Source: a virus
Taxonomy: Duplodnaviria > Caudoviricetes
Length of the DNA stretch: 53,498 nucleotides
Virus record (IMG/VR): IMGVR_UViG_3300046820_000692
Location: 1-53,498 of that record
Strand: one strand, 5' to 3'
In this document: positions 1-52,084 of the stretch, in pieces
How positions within the stretch are numbered: position 1 is the first letter of the stretch
Layout: each line of letters opens with the position of its first letter
Program-made: the position numbers and the translations under genes
Notes under the pieces: generated by a model
Databases searched by the model: none
Told to the model about the DNA's origin: nothing
What the model saw: only the letters and a program-made list of their open reading frames with translations

Positions 1-104
1 AGAGACTAGGGACACTACGGTGAGCCCAAAGCATCCTCCACTTACAATAAAAGTAAGTGATGATATAGTCCGACCCTTATGGAAACATAAGTAAAATGTG
101 ATAG
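1..104 (+). ncRNA. Group I self-splicing intron, 3' part (P7-P7.1-P8-P7'-P9-omegaG); 5' part lies outside the window
   Basis: AGAGACTA (1-8) pairs via GACTA with TAGTC (66-70) in the S-like element GATATAGTCC (P7). CAC-TACG-GTG is a UNCG hairpin (P7.1-like). CACTTAC/GTAAGTG is a perfect stem (39-59, P8). CTTATG-GAAA-CATAAG is a GNRA hairpin (76-91, P9). Terminal G104 directly precedes the in-frame UDG codons CCA TAT CAC (PYH). Confidence 0.9.
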
Positions 105-653
105 CCATATCACAATGGAGCTGCTACCGGCCTTGCATTTGGAGTTAAAGAGGGAATGAAAATTAATCCAAGTCTACGAGTGATACAGAGAGAAATCTGT
201 AGATCTCACGGTATAGATGAATCAGATGCCAAAACAACTGAGTTTGATTATTCATTGTCTCATCTGGCCAAGCAAGGTGTATTGCTATTAAACACTACTC
301 TTACTGTTACTAAAGGTAAGCCAAATTCCCATGAGCAAATCTGGGGCTGGTACACCAAAGGAATTGTTAGAGAGATATGTAATGAGTTAGATGGAGTCAT
401 CTTTTTGTTATGGGGTAAGTTTGCACAGCATGCTTTCGGAGCCATAATCAAAGAAGTGAATTCTTTCCACGACAAATCACATATCATATTTGCTGCATCA
501 CATCCTGCAGCAGAAGTCTATGGAGGTAATGCCAGATTCATTGGGTGTAATCATTTCATTAAAGTTAATGAGATAATTGCAGAGCCAATTGATTGGTTTA
601 AGTTACCAGAGAAAAAGGAGGATGAGTTAGAATCTCAATTTAATTTACTATGA
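105..653 (+). CDS. ung: Uracil-DNA glycosylase (family 1), 3' exon
   Basis: Frame is open from 105: PYHNGAATGLAFG...NPSL...GVLLLNTTLTV...SH..IW...FLLWG...SHPAA...FIGCNHF, all UNG family-1 motifs. The GQD half of the GQDPYH motif is missing and intron sequence sits in its place. The ORF-track start at 156 is an internal Met. Confidence 0.92.
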   Translation, partial: PYHNGAATGLAFGVKEGMKINPSLRVIQREICRSHGIDESDAKTTEFDYSLSHLAKQGVLLLNTTLTVTKGKPNSHEQIWGWYTKGIVREICNELDGVIFLLWGKFAQHAFGAIIKEVNSFHDKSHIIFAASHPAAEVYGGNARFIGCNHFIKVNEIIAEPIDWFKLPEKKEDELESQFNLL

Positions 654-1063
654 ACGATACTGAACAACAGATTAATGCTGTATGCAATCAAATCAAAACA
701 CTCTTACTTTTAAAGAACAAAGCTTACGGGGACTCAGCACTTGAGCCCGTAAGAATCTTTTCGAAGAATAGTTCTATCGATGGACTACTTGTACGAATTG
801 ATGATAAGCTATCTCGAATCAAGAATATGGGGGTTTCTTCAGCAAGTGAAGATACTCTTATGGATTTGATTGGGTACTTAGTTCTTTTGAAGATTCAATT
901 GAATAAAAGTATGAGCAGTGGTTTTGAAGCTATGGCTAAAGAAACTCAGAAGAAAATAGTAGATCAGTTAGGGTTACCAAAGATGCCACCTACCTATTGG
1001 CAAGGTACTCATCATGATATCGATAAGATTCGATACACTAACGGTACTATGACAGGGTATTAA
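650..1063 (+). CDS. DUF1599 / nucleotide-modification-associated domain protein
   Basis: KNKAYGDS...VRIDDKLSRI...EDTLMDLIGYLVL motif pattern; ATGA overlap with the ung stop codon. Confidence 0.75.
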   Translation: MNDTEQQINAVCNQIKTLLLLKNKAYGDSALEPVRIFSKNSSIDGLLVRIDDKLSRIKNMGVSSASEDTLMDLIGYLVLLKIQLNKSMSSGFEAMAKETQKKIVDQLGLPKMPPTYWQGTHHDIDKIRYTNGTMTGY

Positions 1064-1092
1064 AAAGAAAGGGGCTAACGCCCCTTTTTTAT
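1062..1092. terminator. Bidirectional rho-independent terminator between convergent modules
   Basis: AAAAAGAAAGGGGC-TAAC-GCCCCTTTTTT: GC stem flanked by an A tract and a T tract, between convergent stops at 1063 and 1101. Confidence 0.85.
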
Positions 1093-1100
1093 TGCCGTGT

Positions 1101-4100
1101 TTATTGTGTGAAAAACTTGAGTGCTTCTTCTGGACTAAAAGATTTAGAAAGACCATTAGATATTGGTAAAAGCTTGTTACCCATAGCAGCTGTTTTAGAT
1201 TCACCTTTTAAATGTCCATTACTATTTTTTTGGTAGAAAATCTGCTTAGTATCTTCATCGTCTAACTCTACATCAAGTGCTAGTTTTATTCTGTATGGAA
1301 GCTCTTCTGTTAGAAGTTGATCTATCAACAATGCTGCATCTACGATTGGTCGGCTAAGTGCTGTTGGAGATGCAATGAATCTGTAGAATTCTGCTGGATT
1401 CCAAAACTGAGCTAACTCTGCTTGCATTCTCAAAGCTTGATAGGCAAAAAATGCTGTTGCAAATTGATCATCTTCTTCATCGTCGTCATCTAACATTCCA
1501 AGTAGAATGGTACCTATTACAGTTACTGCAACTAACATTGATATTTCTGCAGTAGTTCTTTTAACATTAGGCTTTTCAAAATCTTCAGAAAGCATCTGGT
1601 ATACAGATCCAAATTTAAAACCTTTACTTATTGACTCTCTCATGTACCGTACAAAACTTGTGTACATACCTTCTGTAATCGTATCAGTCTCTGTGTCAAT
1701 GTGTAAGCCAGTACCAATGCCGTATCCGAATCTTCTACGAAGACCTGGTTGGAAATATCTTCTGTACATAGCAAGAGCTTTACCCCACCATCTTCTGTTG
1801 ATTAATGGGTCATCAAAGTCTGTTTTGATTTGGTTAGTCTTCTTGTATACTCCAGATATTAAGTTGATGATGTTTATTTTTTTGTAGTTAGCTACTCTAG
1901 AATCTAGATCCCACTTACCTGTTTTCTCATCTTGTTTGTACAAGTCCCACAGGTTAGCTTCAGAACCATCTTCATTCTTAATAACTTCTCCATTAACATC
2001 TTTCAATTTTCCTTTCAAAGAATCTGCAATTGCTAATCCACGAGTAACAGCAGTTTCATGTTCAGCCATGTGCTGTGCAAAGAATAATGCATCTCTACCC
2101 ATAGCTTTAAAAGCTCTGTTACCAGTCTTTTTAGTTTTGTAGTCATTTAAGGCATCCCCTAAAATATCAAACTCAGCTATGAATCTAGAAAGTTTTGTAT
2201 CCGGGGAGAACTTACCCATATCCTTAACTGTGTCTCCACTAAGAAGCAGCTTTCCGTATGTAAGTTTAGCCCAAGTTAAATTCTTAGCATTAAAGAACTG
2301 CCCAGCTACTGCTTCCTCCATCAACTTTTCGTTATCAATCAAGTACTGGTTACCTGCTTGCAAGAAGTTAAGAGACAATTGATTTAAAGCTGTAAAGGTA
2401 GTAAGCTTGTTAATGATTTTATTACCACTAATAGTTGCATTACCTATGTTGATACTAGATTTGATTTCAGATTCCCCAAAGAAAATCTTATCAATGAATT
2501 CTGATAAGTGTTGGAAGTTATTAGACACTTCTCCTTTACGTCTAGTATGTCTTGTAACTCCTGCTTTACGTGCAGCAGCACTTAAGAATGGAACATTGTT
2601 AGCATTAACTTCAAGCACTTCACGTCGTTCAACGATGTCTCTCATCATGATAACAGCCCCAGTAATCTCAGACTTTCTCTTAAACATGTTTGCCATTCCT
2701 GCATAAAGTACAATAGTACTTCCTATGTCATGGCTTACAAATTTTGCATCTGTAGGGTTGCTGTAAAATACAGGTACAATTTTATTTCGTTGCTCTTTGT
2801 TAGCATTGATAGACATTCCATAAGAGTCGTCCGTTTCTAAGAAACTAAATTCTCTTTTGGCAAAGTGAACAGCTGATTTGAAAACATTATAACTATCCTG
2901 CTGTATTTTTTCTAATCCTTGTGATTCAACAGATGGTACTACGTAAGACACGTCATCCCAATCATTTTTTAAAGGAGTTTGTTTACCTACTATTCTTTGC
3001 TGTCTATGATATACATCTAAGAATCCTTTGTAATATGCACCAGCGGCTCCTATAGGATTTCCTGATGCATCAATTAATTGGCTGTATCTAGGATTAGCAT
3101 AGTTAGAGTTAGGACGTACTGCCATACCCTTGTACTGATCATTCACAGAGTCATAGATTCTTCCAATCTGACTTTTTAAATCGATTATCTGAGCTTCGTA
3201 TGCAATATACAAATCAGGATTAGTACCTTCTACAAGTTTGGCTTTAGCACTTACATCTCTCAATCGTGCAGTCAGCTTATCTTTAAGCAAAGCTCCTTCT
3301 TCAGTTCTTACTGTGTTTCTGTTATACCACTTAGCTACTTCTCTAAAATATGAAACTCCTTTATCGGATTTTTTCCACTCTTTGAATACTTCGTAGTCTA
3401 CGTTCTTAGGCATCTCATATTTTTCAGCCAACGTTTTCCTCATGCTATATTCGTCCTCGTGGAATTTAGTAACATCATAAGGTTGAACAAATGATAAGAT
3501 TTCCATTCGTTTTTTAAATCCTGTTTTAGGATCATCTACGTAGTAAACTTGAGTCTCTAAAATTTCAGAGTTAAACTTCTTAGGATCTATATCAGTTCCT
3601 TTGTAGTTTGCGTACTCTCTATAGATTGGAGCAAGCTCGTCTATTATTTCTCTTGTATCAGCTGAAGCTTGGTACAGTTTATTTTTAACCATGCTTCCGA
3701 ATAACTGCAGAGTAACTTGAGTAGAGTACATCAATGGGTCCATGTAGACAGAGTAGCCACTCTTGTCTGTCTGAGCTTCACGTAATTCATTTAATAGAGT
3801 TTCTCTTCCAAGTTTTTTGTTTTCAAGTTGCTCTATGTTTAACTCTATAAGTTCGTTTTCGTACTCTTCTTTAGTCAGCTCATCTTCTTGGAATCTTTTC
3901 TTTAAAGCATCATACTTTTCATCTTTTATAATTGATATCAATCTTCGATTGGTCTTTATATTATCAATTGTATTTTGAAGTAAGCTGTCAATTTCTGGAG
4001 TAACATAGTCAAGTAAAATATCTACTTGTACTTCTAATCCAATCTTGTTGTAGATCTTCTGTTGTCTCTTTAAGCTTTTAATTAAGTCTGCAACTTTCTC

Positions 4101-5594
4101 CTCCATCTCAGTAAGCTTAGAGCTTTCTTTACCTTGTCTACCTAAAGTATCTTTCTTTTCTAGAATAGACTCTTCAATCTGAGATAGGACACTTCTTTCC
4201 CCACCCCCAAGTAAATCTTTAATAAGGTTACCTACATTGAGCATGTCTCTTTGGATAGCAAATTTATCGTCTTCTGATAAATCTTTAATGGTATCTTTTT
4301 GAGCCACTACAGCATTCAAGGATTCTCTGTTCAATTTAACAGCTCGATTCAAGTAGTCTAAGAAGTTTGAGAAGTCTTCAATCTTTTTAACTTCTCTCAT
4401 TGTCTTAATGTGAGCTCGTAAGTTAGCAATGACTTCGTCATTCTTAACAGGCATCGACTCAAACTTATCTAACTGTACTTGCAAAGTTTCTGACACAGCT
4501 CCTACCATGTCTCTGAAGTCTTTAAGCTTTGCATCTATAGCTCTACTCTCTTGTATCTCTTCACTTAGTTCTCCAGTAAGTTCTCTAGTATCCAGCTTTT
4601 TGCTTAACAGTTTGTCTACTAAAAGTTCTAAGGCATCATCGTTTAGCTTAAACTCATTTTTTATAGCTCTGAGTAACTTTCTAATGATAGTAAGTAACTT
4701 ATCTTTAGAATTTGCTGGAGCTGTTCTTAAAGCAGCTTTCATACCGATAGCAGTTACCAAAGCTTCTTTTAAAATAAACTCGTCAGACTTGTCTGAGTAC
4801 AATTCTCTAATTTGTCTGTAAAGTTCTGTCTCCAGTATCATCTTGGAAGCTTCCTTTACAAGCTTGTTGTTCTCTCCTAATAAATCTATAAGTATGTGTG
4901 CAAACTCATGGTAGTGAGTATCTTCTGCCATTATTGTGGGGTTAAGTTTTATCTCAACAAGATTATCCTCTACCTTTTCCACCGTTCCTTTTTGACTCAT
5001 CTTTGAATCAAACCTTACTTTTACATTTATTCCAGCTGATGCAAAAGTTTCTTTCAAATGCTTAAGCTGTTCTTCAACAGTAGGGGTTACTGTAAATTTA
5101 TCTCTCTTAGCTTCTGCAGCTGATTGTTCTACGGTTCTTAAAGATGTATCTCTTTCTGGCCTTGCAATAGTTTTGTTTGCTCGATTCTGTCTAACTACTT
5201 CTTTTAATCTGTCATCAGACATTGTAGGGATAGTAATTTCTCTGGCAGCTGAGTATACTTCAGTGTTAAGTATATCATCATTAAACTCTAGAGATATTCT
5301 ATTATTTGATAATTGAGAAGCTGAAAACAATGGCATACCAAAGTGTCTAGCAATAGTGCTATTCACAATGTTTACCATGTTATTAGGGTCAGACAATTTA
5401 CCCTTTGCTATAAACGTACCGTTAGCCGTTACTGTAAAAGTCTCTGGGAACCCATCAAGTAAAGCATACTTAACGATCTTTTCATTAGAACTTTGAGTAG
5501 TTTTTTCAGCCTCTACAGCATTGAATAGATTTTCAAATCTAATAGATCTAGTAGGATGCTCTTGTCCAAAGGTTTCGTAAACTTTACAGGCCAT
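1101..5594 (-). CDS. Giant virion cargo/ejection protein with zincin-like HEXXH motif and C-terminal hydrophobic helix
   Basis: About 1497 aa from ATG 5594 (ORF track starts at GTG 5600). HEFAH at 4896-4910 followed by EALVTAIG; hydrophobic ISMLVAVTVIGTILLGML near the C-terminus; last gene of the vRNAP-associated trio. Confidence 0.75.
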   Translation of the reverse strand: MACKVYETFGQEHPTRSIRFENLFNAVEAEKTTQSSNEKIVKYALLDGFPETFTVTANGTFIAKGKLSDPNNMVNIVNSTIARHFGMPLFSASQLSNNRISLEFNDDILNTEVYSAAREITIPTMSDDRLKEVVRQNRANKTIARPERDTSLRTVEQSAAEAKRDKFTVTPTVEEQLKHLKETFASAGINVKVRFDSKMSQKGTVEKVEDNLVEIKLNPTIMAEDTHYHEFAHILIDLLGENNKLVKEASKMILETELYRQIRELYSDKSDEFILKEALVTAIGMKAALRTAPANSKDKLLTIIRKLLRAIKNEFKLNDDALELLVDKLLSKKLDTRELTGELSEEIQESRAIDAKLKDFRDMVGAVSETLQVQLDKFESMPVKNDEVIANLRAHIKTMREVKKIEDFSNFLDYLNRAVKLNRESLNAVVAQKDTIKDLSEDDKFAIQRDMLNVGNLIKDLLGGGERSVLSQIEESILEKKDTLGRQGKESSKLTEMEEKVADLIKSLKRQQKIYNKIGLEVQVDILLDYVTPEIDSLLQNTIDNIKTNRRLISIIKDEKYDALKKRFQEDELTKEEYENELIELNIEQLENKKLGRETLLNELREAQTDKSGYSVYMDPLMYSTQVTLQLFGSMVKNKLYQASADTREIIDELAPIYREYANYKGTDIDPKKFNSEILETQVYYVDDPKTGFKKRMEILSFVQPYDVTKFHEDEYSMRKTLAEKYEMPKNVDYEVFKEWKKSDKGVSYFREVAKWYNRNTVRTEEGALLKDKLTARLRDVSAKAKLVEGTNPDLYIAYEAQIIDLKSQIGRIYDSVNDQYKGMAVRPNSNYANPRYSQLIDASGNPIGAAGAYYKGFLDVYHRQQRIVGKQTPLKNDWDDVSYVVPSVESQGLEKIQQDSYNVFKSAVHFAKREFSFLETDDSYGMSINANKEQRNKIVPVFYSNPTDAKFVSHDIGSTIVLYAGMANMFKRKSEITGAVIMMRDIVERREVLEVNANNVPFLSAAARKAGVTRHTRRKGEVSNNFQHLSEFIDKIFFGESEIKSSINIGNATISGNKIINKLTTFTALNQLSLNFLQAGNQYLIDNEKLMEEAVAGQFFNAKNLTWAKLTYGKLLLSGDTVKDMGKFSPDTKLSRFIAEFDILGDALNDYKTKKTGNRAFKAMGRDALFFAQHMAEHETAVTRGLAIADSLKGKLKDVNGEVIKNEDGSEANLWDLYKQDEKTGKWDLDSRVANYKKINIINLISGVYKKTNQIKTDFDDPLINRRWWGKALAMYRRYFQPGLRRRFGYGIGTGLHIDTETDTITEGMYTSFVRYMRESISKGFKFGSVYQMLSEDFEKPNVKRTTAEISMLVAVTVIGTILLGMLDDDDEEDDQFATAFFAYQALRMQAELAQFWNPAEFYRFIASPTALSRPIVDAALLIDQLLTEELPYRIKLALDVELDDEDTKQIFYQKNSNGHLKGESKTAAMGNKLLPISNGLSKSFSPEEALKFFTQ

Positions 5595-5606
5595 ATTCAC
5601 TTATTT

Positions 5607-50110: not shown

Positions 50111-52084
50111 TTAACCGTAGTTTTTGTCAAACCAGTCATTTTTAGAGTTATCGTGGTCATCAAACTTAAGTTCCTTATTGTATAACTCTCGTGTGTGATA
50201 CATCCCAATCATGAATGCCATGGCACGGTCAAAGTTGCCCTGCCTGTTAAATTTGATTAACTCTAGTAATAAAGCTGGGTCATAAATCTTGTGCATATTG
50301 AGAGTTACGTCCCCATCTTCGTTTACCCCTCTACCACTAACTAACCAGTCTCTGATATACAATTCACCTTGAGCTTTACGTTGTTCGGTCATGTGCATAC
50401 CGTACTGTCGTTTTACTGTCTTACTTCTAAGATCTCTCTTATCCAGCATTTCGAACTCTTCCTGTAGCATATGCATTTTTCTAAATCGTTTTGCATAGGC
50501 AATAACTTCTCCTCGGTCATTCTCAAATCCAATCTTTGCATTGTAGTATTCAGCCAGCATAAATAGATTTCTATTGTAGTCATCTTGGGTCTGAGGCCTT
50601 CCGACATACGAAGCCACAATGATATCATCAGGCTTAGAAATGTTGTTCGGGACTTTAATAACATATGCTGCACCGAGAGATGTAGCTGATGCTGACTTTC
50701 CTTGTGCATATGGGTCATGGCAAATTATGTATAAGTTCTTTGGGGTGATATCTTCTATCTCTGTTTTAAATGGAGGTTCGTAAATAACTATGGCCCCGGT
50801 TAAATTGTCGTCCTTTCTGTGTGGAAACTTAACAATAGGTTTAAGGTTGAAGTCAGGTCTGAAACTAACTTTACCTTTACTATCGTAGTACATCTCACCT
50901 GCTACCCCAATCTTTTGGAGATCGTTAGCAATTACTCTGTTGTACTGTTCTTTTAAAGATGATACGTCAAAGGTATTTGCAGTAACTTGAAGTGTAGCTT
51001 CTTGTGGAGTGAACGGCATCTCGGCAATGTACTGGTCAAATGCTTTTGGATCGTTACCTTTCTTTTTCTTCTCCCTTTGAGCTTCTTCGTAAGCAATTGC
51101 TTCCTCGATTAAGCTGTTACCATTCTCGTCAATAAAACCATCTAAGTTTTTGTAGATGGGGACAAAATATCCACAGGTAGTCCCCATAGCCCCAGCATCC
51201 CAATCGTTTTCAAATCCAAGGCAGTCATAAGCTTCAGGGTGGTAAAACAATTCCTCCATACCTTCAAAACCTGGACCTTCTTCTCCACCTGTTCCAAATG
51301 CAACCATTGTCCCAAGAGTTTTAGAACCTTGTCTCATTGTAGGCATTGCTACCTCCCAAGCTTTTAACAGTCCTGCAAAAGATCCTGCTTCTTCAAAGAA
51401 GATCAATTCACCTGCTTTACCACGGATTTTATCTGGATCATCTTTTAAGGATACCCCGATAATCTGTGATTTAAAGCCTAAGGTAACGTCGGCTCCGTTT
51501 ACATTCTTTTTGTAACCAGACTGCTTGTGCATCTCTCTATCGATAAGTCTAGGCTGAGTCCAAGCTGTGTTGTCATCTATGAATGAGACAATGTCCCAAG
51601 CTTTAGATAACATTCCATCTCCAGTTAAGTATTGCTTGTCAGAAGCAAATACAAAATTCTTAGAATTCCTAATATGGAAGTAGTTACGGCAAAGCATAGC
51701 TGCAGCCTTGTAGGAGAATCCTTTTCGACGAGCCTTGAGAACCACGAGATGTTTGTTTTCTCTACGTGCTCTATCAACCGAGTTAAAGTATTCGAAGTCA
51801 CCGTCATAAAATGCTGGGAAGCTTCTATCACGTCGTGAGATAATTTCACCATCAGGTTGTTCTTCATCTATAATCCTATCTATTGGACAATAATTTAAGT
51901 AAAAGTAGTGAAATCCAGAAATCTTTATTCCATTAACTTCGTACCCATGCATGCATCTATTCTGCTCTTCATCCCAATACTCATAGTATTGCTTTGTACC
52001 AGGAAGAGCATCAGTATAAAAGCCATACTCAATGTAATGAGCTGCAGCTGGGGCAAATAAATGTGTGTCTTTAAGCTTACTCAC
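50111..52084 (-). CDS. terL: Terminase large subunit
   Basis: 657 aa. Walker A KARRKGFS, Walker B LIFFEEAG, coupling motif FGTGG, nuclease ICHDPY...GNFDR; no intein evident. Confidence 0.93.
   Translation of the reverse strand: MSKLKDTHLFAPAAAHYIEYGFYTDALPGTKQYYEYWDEEQNRCMHGYEVNGIKISGFHYFYLNYCPIDRIIDEEQPDGEIISRRDRSFPAFYDGDFEYFNSVDRARRENKHLVVLKARRKGFSYKAAAMLCRNYFHIRNSKNFVFASDKQYLTGDGMLSKAWDIVSFIDDNTAWTQPRLIDREMHKQSGYKKNVNGADVTLGFKSQIIGVSLKDDPDKIRGKAGELIFFEEAGSFAGLLKAWEVAMPTMRQGSKTLGTMVAFGTGGEEGPGFEGMEELFYHPEAYDCLGFENDWDAGAMGTTCGYFVPIYKNLDGFIDENGNSLIEEAIAYEEAQREKKKKGNDPKAFDQYIAEMPFTPQEATLQVTANTFDVSSLKEQYNRVIANDLQKIGVAGEMYYDSKGKVSFRPDFNLKPIVKFPHRKDDNLTGAIVIYEPPFKTEIEDITPKNLYIICHDPYAQGKSASATSLGAAYVIKVPNNISKPDDIIVASYVGRPQTQDDYNRNLFMLAEYYNAKIGFENDRGEVIAYAKRFRKMHMLQEEFEMLDKRDLRSKTVKRQYGMHMTEQRKAQGELYIRDWLVSGRGVNEDGDVTLNMHKIYDPALLLELIKFNRQGNFDRAMAFMIGMYHTRELYNKELKFDDHDNSKNDWFDKNYG

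Follow-up and report, generated by a model that had tools for sequence, protein, structure and literature searches.

What stands in front of the uracil-DNA glycosylase (UDG) sequence with which one viral contig begins? The window analyzed here is the whole stretch of 53,498 nucleotides (nt) in IMG/VR record IMGVR_UViG_3300046820_000692, and from its base 105 onward it encodes the PYH of the UDG motif GQDPYH (CCA TAT CAC), preceded immediately by an in-frame TAG at 102–104. A first-pass annotation of this DNA had proposed that a group I intron splits the catalytic GQD|PYH motif of the gene. Window positions 1–104 are indeed the 3' end of a group I intron, into which the start of the contig cuts. 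The reading that we favor, with a probability of roughly 0.88, is that a mobile group I intron of ~866 nt lies between the GAT and CCA codons of the UDG GQD|PYH loop in a freshwater crAss-like phage. The evidence that carries this reading comes from intronless alleles of the same gene, from a complete copy of the intron in a near-identical relative, and from introns at the same codon junction in highly diverged UDG genes.

UDG alleles with and without the intron

The frame from base 105 reads PYHNGAATGLAFGVKEG... and stays open up to a stop at 651–653. This UDG 3' exon (105–653, plus strand; 182 codons plus stop) starts PYHNGAATGLAF, contains AASHPAAE, and matches Pfam UDG on its own at 31.4 bits versus a cut-off of 24.3. 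Family-1 UDGs are recognized by the GQDPYH water-activating loop, the Asp of which is the catalytic water-activating residue, and by an HPSP-type His motif. The intronless protein of a close IMG/VR relative, L001, reaches 164.5 bits against the NCBIfam UNG equivalog NF003592 (cut-off 162) and aligns to UNGs of the PDB with E ~1e-34, placing vviigqdpyh on VVILGQDPYH and aashpa on AVHPSP. Judged by these models and the PDB alignment, the host gene is a family-1 UNG and the intron splits it between the Asp and Pro of GQDPYH, in line with what had been claimed for the catalytic motif. A gene caller would likely start the protein at ATG 156 (ORF, open reading frame, 156–653; 165 amino acids, MKINPS...), and that product lacks the GQDPYH loop.

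A peptide-pattern scan of IMG/VR yielded 47 candidate stretches, five of which encode relatives of the exon protein (87–99% amino acid identity). GQD|PYH is uninterrupted in all five (...GGGCAGGAT|CCATATCAC... or synonymous variants); in L001, for example, the GQDPYH region lies inside a single ORF of 251 amino acids, ...LRVVIIGQDPYHNGAATGLAFGV..., and the 3' exon protein of the window is 99% identical to the L001 protein. Base 105 is exactly where the similarity of these intronless relatives to the window begins. The preceding position leaves no ambiguity about the boundary, since the window has a G there and the intronless genes have a T; hence, U (GAU) is the last base of the 5' exon and G that of the intron. 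In catalogued phages, a tblastn search of 50,697 records with the full UDG returned no split UDG among the matches listed (60 of 102 records), each of which spans residues 69/70 without a break.

An exact 36-mer from the window led to a metagenome contig of 1,342 nt, L041, in which the intron is complete:

46–252: UDG 5' exon, MSKLLEQ...VVIIGQD, with GAT at 250–252, then TGA
253–1118: intron of 866 nt, between GAT and the 3' exon
From 1119: 3' exon, PYHNGAATG...

Position 1119 of L041 equals window position 105, and the window's junction, ...GTGATAG|CCATATCAC, is present in L041 as well. The opposite arrangement was found in a public 5,727-nt contig of run X5, where L041 252 is joined directly to 1119, skipping 866 nt with the ends TG..AG; this is the intronless form. 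The 3' splice boundary that the first-pass annotation had drawn between 104 and 105 is thus located twice, by the point at which intronless homology starts and by the segment that X5 skips (L041 253–1118).

Parts of window 1–1100 occur in 24 public runs, mostly freshwater, lake, drinking-water, and sediment metagenomes; three of these runs contain nearly all of it and may be its source. Logan contigs of four runs were aligned to L041 at 80% likeness and read as tables of differences. Two of them, one from run X2 (50,483 nt) and one from run X1 (27,197 nt), carry the variants of the window, such as 1088 T>C, 1139 C>T, and 1142 T>C. The X2 contig extends from the UDG 5' exon across all of the intron. 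The X1 contig also covers the whole intron and starts at L041 229, 24 nt upstream of the 5' splice site, which two X1 pieces of 202 nt span as well. Compared with L041 253–1118, the X1 and X2 contigs have no listed indel and 18 listed substitutions. By these Logan contigs, which do not count as independent support, the window phage carries the whole intron. Intron-plus and intron-minus UDG alleles coexist, as is evident from X1 and X2 versus X5 and the IMG/VR relatives. Short X4 and X5 pieces that align to L041 917–1109 at <90% likeness were read as other introns sharing the core and were set aside.

The same contigs bear upon whether positions 1–104 could be an assembly artefact, i.e., part of the intron of another genome misjoined to the 3' half of a UDG gene at the contig end. 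The contig does start inside the element, and a 19-mer of the intron core recurs in 35 other IMG/VR contigs, a repeat of the kind that confuses assemblers. However, the identical junction occurs in the independent metagenome contig L041, X1 and X2 share it and continue into the UDG 5' exon, and homologous introns occupy the same codon junction in L042–L044 and L046 (described below), so that we regard a misjoin as very improbable. The break at the window start is itself best explained by assembly. A check for circular permutation found the 5' half of the intron absent from the far end of the contig, where the last 3 kb consist of minus-strand genes.

Anatomy of the intron and its predicted splicing

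The elements within window 1–104 follow one another in group I order (J6/7, P7, P7.1, P3', P8, J8/7, P7', P9, omega G). All of the following are on the plus strand:

1–3: end of J6/7, AGA, from the Rfam alignment; corresponds to L041 1015–1017, and the contig starts here
4–8: P7 5' strand, GACUA, pairing with 66–70; paired in 3/3 aligned sequences
9–27: P7.1 hairpin, GGG.CAC, UACG loop (16–19), GUG..CCC; an insertion relative to the Rfam consensus
28–31: AAAG spacer, 3' of the P7.1 hairpin and 5' of the P3 3' strand, from the sequence
32–38: P3 3' strand, CAUCCUC; its partner, GAGGAAG, is at L041 935–941, beyond the 5' end of the window
40–58: P8 hairpin, ACUUAC/GUAAGU (40–45, 53–58) with loop AAUAAAA, from the minimum free energy fold
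59–65: J8/7, GAUGAUA, conserved core, from the Rfam alignment; within the 19-mer common to 35 IMG/VR contigs
66–70: P7 3' strand, UAGUC, pairing with 4–8, from the minimum free energy fold and the three-row alignment
71–75: CGACC, between P7' and P9, from the sequence
76–91: P9 hairpin, CUUAUG/CAUAAG (76–81, 86–91) with GAAA cap (82–85)
92–104: intron 3' tail, of which G104 is the terminal (omega) G; the TAG codon at 102–104 is in frame with the exon

The P7 strands (GACTA/TAGTC), the UNCG-capped P7.1, P8, the GAAA-capped P9, and G104 each lie where they had been claimed from the letters alone, as does the in-frame TAG directly before PYH. An unconstrained minimum free energy fold of 1–104 yields P7, P7.1, P8, and P9 (z −2.75), with 2/200 shuffles folding equally well. 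Rfam Intron_gpI aligns window 1–92 to model positions 141–253 as a 5'-truncated match of 29.9 bits, with E-values of 4.9e-5 when 3 kb were searched and 8.7e-4 for the window as a whole, and Rfam found no other group I intron in the window at E up to 0.01. A P7.1 located between P7 and P3' is an extra element typical of subgroup IA, and an IA-like intron fits the P7.1 hairpin observed here. The hairpin at 9–27 agrees with the earlier assignment to subgroup IA with P7.1; no P7.2 was seen in the window. A blastn search of window 1–1100 against catalogued phages gave no match, and an exact 31-mer covering P9 and the tail had 0 matches in IMG/VR.

The upstream portion is supplied by L041, which has a match to the full Rfam Intron_gpI model at 856–1106 (90.4 bits, E 1.6e-23) and none to any other Rfam family at E up to 1. 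Its ORF at 272–958 (228 amino acids) matches LAGLIDADG_2 (PF03161) at 120.6 bits versus a cut-off of 25 (E 8.9e-35) and displays the motifs LLGDGSI and WYMDDGN, from which we infer a double-motif LAGLIDADG homing endonuclease with putative cleavage activity. The P1 loop is taken up by the endonuclease gene, whose final codons extend over the guide sequence, P3, and the P4 5' strand. The guide sequence, 5'-AUGG.GUCCUG-3' (919–928), lies directly before P3. Its GUCCUG (923–928) pairs with the exon sequence CAGGAU (247–252) to form P1, including a U252·G923 wobble, while its AUGG (919–922) pairs with CCAU (1119–1122) to form P10, the exon strand of which is CCAU at 105–108 in the window. The first-pass annotation had anticipated upstream of the window a 5' exon ending in GQD (GAT), P1–P6 with an Infernal match, and possibly a homing endonuclease ORF, and it had deduced a 5' exon ending in U and a GAU|CCA junction. 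L041 contains all of these, with P1 and P10 fitting GAU|...G|CCA.

On this layout, the predicted route of splicing is as follows. The guide would hold the end of the 5' exon in P1, with the U·G pair at the splice site, and the start of the 3' exon in P10. Guanosine-initiated splicing would then remove the intron after G104 and join GAU to CCA, which would restore GQDPYH; active UDG would hence depend upon splicing. Translation of unspliced RNA would halt as soon as it entered the intron, whose first codon is TGA in L041. The endonuclease, in turn, would be expected to cut UDG alleles that lack the intron, at the conserved GGNCAGGAT|CCNTAY, after which repair would copy the intron into the cut allele. 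Homing of this kind would account for the same intron lineage occurring in very different UDG genes and for coexisting intron-plus and intron-minus alleles.

Other elements that could interrupt the gene are group II introns, inteins, and free-standing endonuclease genes that split UDG into two separately translated halves, and LAGLIDADG genes do occur both in inteins and on their own; moreover, the phage matches to the L041 endonuclease include intein-containing genes. An intein would conflict with the in-frame stops at both ends of the element (in L041, GAT is followed by TGA; in the window, CCA is preceded by TAG). Both L041 and L042 match the full Rfam group I model, and the only Rfam family found in L041 is the group I intron. 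We consider an element of another class to be even less probable than a misjoined contig. Because independent contigs carry the junction and in-frame stops occur at both ends, both a chimera and a non-group-I element can be excluded for practical purposes.

The group I structure is also conserved across an alignment of window 1–111 with the cores of L041 and L042, in which 45 pairs were scored over P3, P4, P5, P6, P6a, P7, P7.1, P8, and P9. Standard pairs were found in 113/113 cells of this P3–P9 structure. Both partners differ in six of the pairs (P6a contributes four, P8 and P9 one each); relative to L042, the P8 change is a compensatory C-G to U-A and the P9 change a compensatory U-A to C-G. 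When the structure was slid by 1–3 columns as a control, 28–41% of the cells paired, and 2/500 shuffles reached the observed covariation score. P5a lies outside of the formal count due to an indel between L041 and L042, but by eye GUCA/UGAU is replaced by GGC/GCC. We take the covariation in these three rows as supportive rather than strong, with the Rfam scores carrying more weight.

Several observations weigh against the proposed mobile, splicing intron. The window itself is without P1–P6, the 5' exon, and the endonuclease gene, and its Rfam score of 29.9 bits is below the 50-bit gathering score, such that gathering mode reports nothing in the window; a sub-threshold score is nonetheless expected, because the window holds less than half of the Intron_gpI model. 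The X1 and X2 contigs that extend the allele upstream may derive from the window's own sample, in which case their support is not independent. At least 17 of the substitutions that they reveal fall in the endonuclease ORF, which may or may not be open in the window phage. With respect to structure, a P2 could not be identified in the stretch of L041 from the guide sequence to P3, and the P1 of L041 is long-range, with strands ~670 nt apart, which is unusual though known. No P9.0 pairing could be supported either; one candidate (AU 1087–1088 with AU 1115–1116 in L041) was dropped, since the window has C at the first position. The aligned structure was derived from the same three sequences on which it was scored, which favors it over the slid controls. 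Lastly, the L001 protein scores 167.3 bits (E 4e-49) against TIGR00628, under that model's own cut-off of 185.75.

The main rival is a decayed intron, i.e., an element that is group I by descent but no longer splices, leaving either a UDG pseudogene or a truncated protein made from ATG 156. In its favor, splicing is deduced from sequence, the window fragment scores under the Rfam gathering score, the endonuclease ORF of the window phage is known only to be free of indels, and the ORF at 156–653 does exist. Decay would be difficult to reconcile, however, with helices that are all fully paired and include compensatory changes, with P1 and P10 pairings that are intact in the relatives, and with a 3' exon that is free of stops and encodes a protein 99% identical to intronless alleles. 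Furthermore, a protein initiated at 156 would be without the GQDPYH loop, and the last 104 nt of the intron are nearly identical to those of L041 amid diverged exons, which suggests recent transfer. We therefore judge loss of splicing to be improbable, although less so than the two explanations above, and retain an intron that splices and homes as the preferred reading.

One codon junction in several phage lineages

The comparison with L041 also bears upon mobility. L041 1015–1118 and window 1–104 are identical at 103/104 positions, whereas the adjoining exon is identical at only 184/224, a contrast that recent lateral transfer would produce. Searching with the L041 endonuclease gave 28 relatives from 30 pattern matches, seven of which (L042–L048) were examined.

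In three of these contigs (L042, L043, and L044, of 11.7, 91.5, and 19.6 kb), ...LKVVIVGQD is followed by TAA, an intron of 870 nt, and then PYPGINQADGISFSC. The endonuclease of this type is 71% identical to that of L041. The L042 intron is 77% identical to the L041 intron over its whole length, scores 83.7 bits against Rfam in evalue mode, and has the same P1 and P10 pairings. A fourth contig, L046 (175 kb, with terminal repeats), has ...LKVIILGQD followed by TAA, a 1,013-nt intron, and then PYHDGSYNGLAFGNG. This intron scores 68.9 bits against Rfam and its endonuclease is 35% identical to that of L041, yet it is inserted at the same phosphodiester and has the same layout, with LAGLIDADG in the P1 loop and the guide just before P3. 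The L046 guide, CGG.GUCCUGU, is located just before the core and matches the contig's own exons, ACAGGAU|CCG; relative to L041, the third P10 pair has changed from A-U to G-C in compensatory fashion. An exact 32-mer comprising the guide sequence and P3/P4 matched only three contigs in IMG/VR, all already known.

The genes that host these introns are only distantly related. UDG protein identity to the window type is 31.5% for the L042 type and 33% for L046, and the TerL proteins of the L042-type and L046 hosts are 27% identical to that of the window, versus 91–92% for the L003 and L005 genomes. Given the divergent UDGs and terminases of the intron hosts, the GQD|PY junction is therefore used in at least three phage lineages. 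We lean toward the broader view that the Asp|Pro junction of the GQDPY(H/P) loop is a recurrent homing site, absent from published lists of phage intron targets, at which homing across lineages would be guided only by the ~15–20 bp of DNA encoding the active-site loop; we hold this with clearly less confidence than the presence of the intron itself.

The remaining endonuclease relatives do not involve UDG. The 146.7-kb viral contig L045 has a group I intron at 3082–3357 (Rfam 51.2 bits) and an endonuclease 48% identical to that of L041; no GQD/PYH motif flanks this intron, which places a related endonuclease in the intron of another gene. A PYHN pattern match in L047 was rejected as UDG, being low-complexity sequence with no GQD upstream, and neither a UDG motif nor a relevant intron was found in L048.

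It should be noted that Rfam gathering mode, with its fast filters, missed L042–L044, including the 83.7-bit L042 intron, and was also blank for L001–L005. Since it can miss an intron of this score, blanks in gathering mode are no evidence of absence here, and the mode is unreliable for group I introns in AT-rich phage DNA.

A separate observation concerns the ribozyme core. The exact 19-mer GTGATGATATAGTCCGACC, which covers J8/7-P7-J7/9, is common to 35 viral contigs (L006–L040), all in other group I introns whose P8 and P9 hairpins differ from those of the window. This sharing suggests that phage group I introns built around a near-invariant core are widespread. Downstream of P7, the introns of L006, L007, and L034 are the most similar to that of the window. 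L012 and L025 have A runs (16 to >30) in the P9 region after the 19-mer, which may be an artefact of assembly or sequencing or a real homopolymer.

The host phage and comparison with known introns

The TerL of the window (50111–52084, minus strand) is 40–42% identical to those of crAss-like phages, with relatives including uncultured phage cr52_1 and phages of Bacteroides, Flavobacterium, and Cellulophaga, and 92% identical to the TerL of the complete L003 genome. The closest catalogued relatives of its UDG, at ~36%, are from Flavobacterium FpV phages and crAss001-type phages. The window accordingly represents part of the genome of a crAss-like phage from freshwater. The L003 genome is 83,556 bp with terminal repeats, so the window would comprise roughly two thirds of such a genome. 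Downstream of UDG, at 1064–1091, a T run comes directly after a GC-rich hairpin (AAAGGGGCTAACGCCCCTTTTTT); this element lies between the convergent ORFs 650–1063 (plus strand) and 1101–5600 (minus strand, 1,499 amino acids) and looks like a bidirectional intrinsic terminator.

If spliced as predicted, the gene most likely yields a full UDG in the window phage, even though gene callers give either a 165-amino-acid "UDG" from ATG 156 that lacks the Asp loop or a broken gene. UDG would thus join the phage DNA-metabolism genes whose most conserved codons serve as homing sites. The alleles described here, which range from intron-minus genes through near-identical introns in diverged exons to a UDG gene that is only 31% identical yet hosts an intron of 77% identity, form a natural series for the study of homing across divergent hosts. 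Were the junction truly a recurrent homing site, the endonucleases would represent a natural meganuclease family specific for an active-site-loop sequence. Ribozyme cores shared among many phage introns may also plausibly disrupt assembly and leave contig ends like that at the window start.

Regarding precedent, the first-pass annotation was aware of no description of ung as an intron target. This agrees with our full-text literature search, which found no paper describing UDG as a phage intron host, supplementary host-gene tables being outside of its scope. Passages of the Zeta crAss, group II survey, group I database, and roseophage papers likewise name no UDG intron, the roseophage intron being in terL.

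The classical comparison is with the introns of T4 td, nrdB, and nrdD (sunY) and of Twort, which are self-splicing IA introns with endonuclease genes that are inserted at highly conserved codons and have intron-plus and intron-minus alleles. Their endonucleases are of the GIY-YIG, HNH, or other types and are encoded in P6a, P9.1, or similar loops. The UDG intron resembles these in its location in a phage nucleotide/DNA-metabolism gene, its insertion at conserved codons, its endonuclease gene (seen in L041), and its intron-plus and intron-minus alleles, and its P7.1 hairpin would fit type IA. It differs in its host gene and in the placement of the endonuclease, as the L041-type intron encodes a LAGLIDADG protein within the P1 loop and ~670 nt separate its guide from the 5' splice site.

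Among recent examples, the Jug jumbo gut phages have group I introns that split terL, nrdD, and DNA polymerase, and metatranscriptome reads confirmed splicing for 37/76 predicted introns, according to the intron passages of that report (PMC12880540). These are likewise group I introns splitting essential phage genes, but their mean length is ~206 nt, most of them contain no ORF, and the main text of the report has zero occurrences of "glycosylase" or "UDG".

The closest system is found in the crAss-like phages themselves. In the passages of Yutin et al. (2021; PMC7886860) that treat introns, group I introns are named in the MCP, PolB, primase, ATP_43b, and RNAP subunit genes, with examples from the human-gut Delta and Zeta groups and with LAGLIDADG endonucleases encoded by introns. 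The likeness extends to the same phage assemblage, to the LAGLIDADG and other endonuclease genes, and to conserved core genes as targets; in contrast, UDG appears in those passages only as a phage gene and not as an intron host, and the window phage is from freshwater. Thus, no concept is changed by the present intron, since its kind and mechanism are known and crAss-like group I introns with LAGLIDADG genes are established, and what is new is the target gene, UDG.

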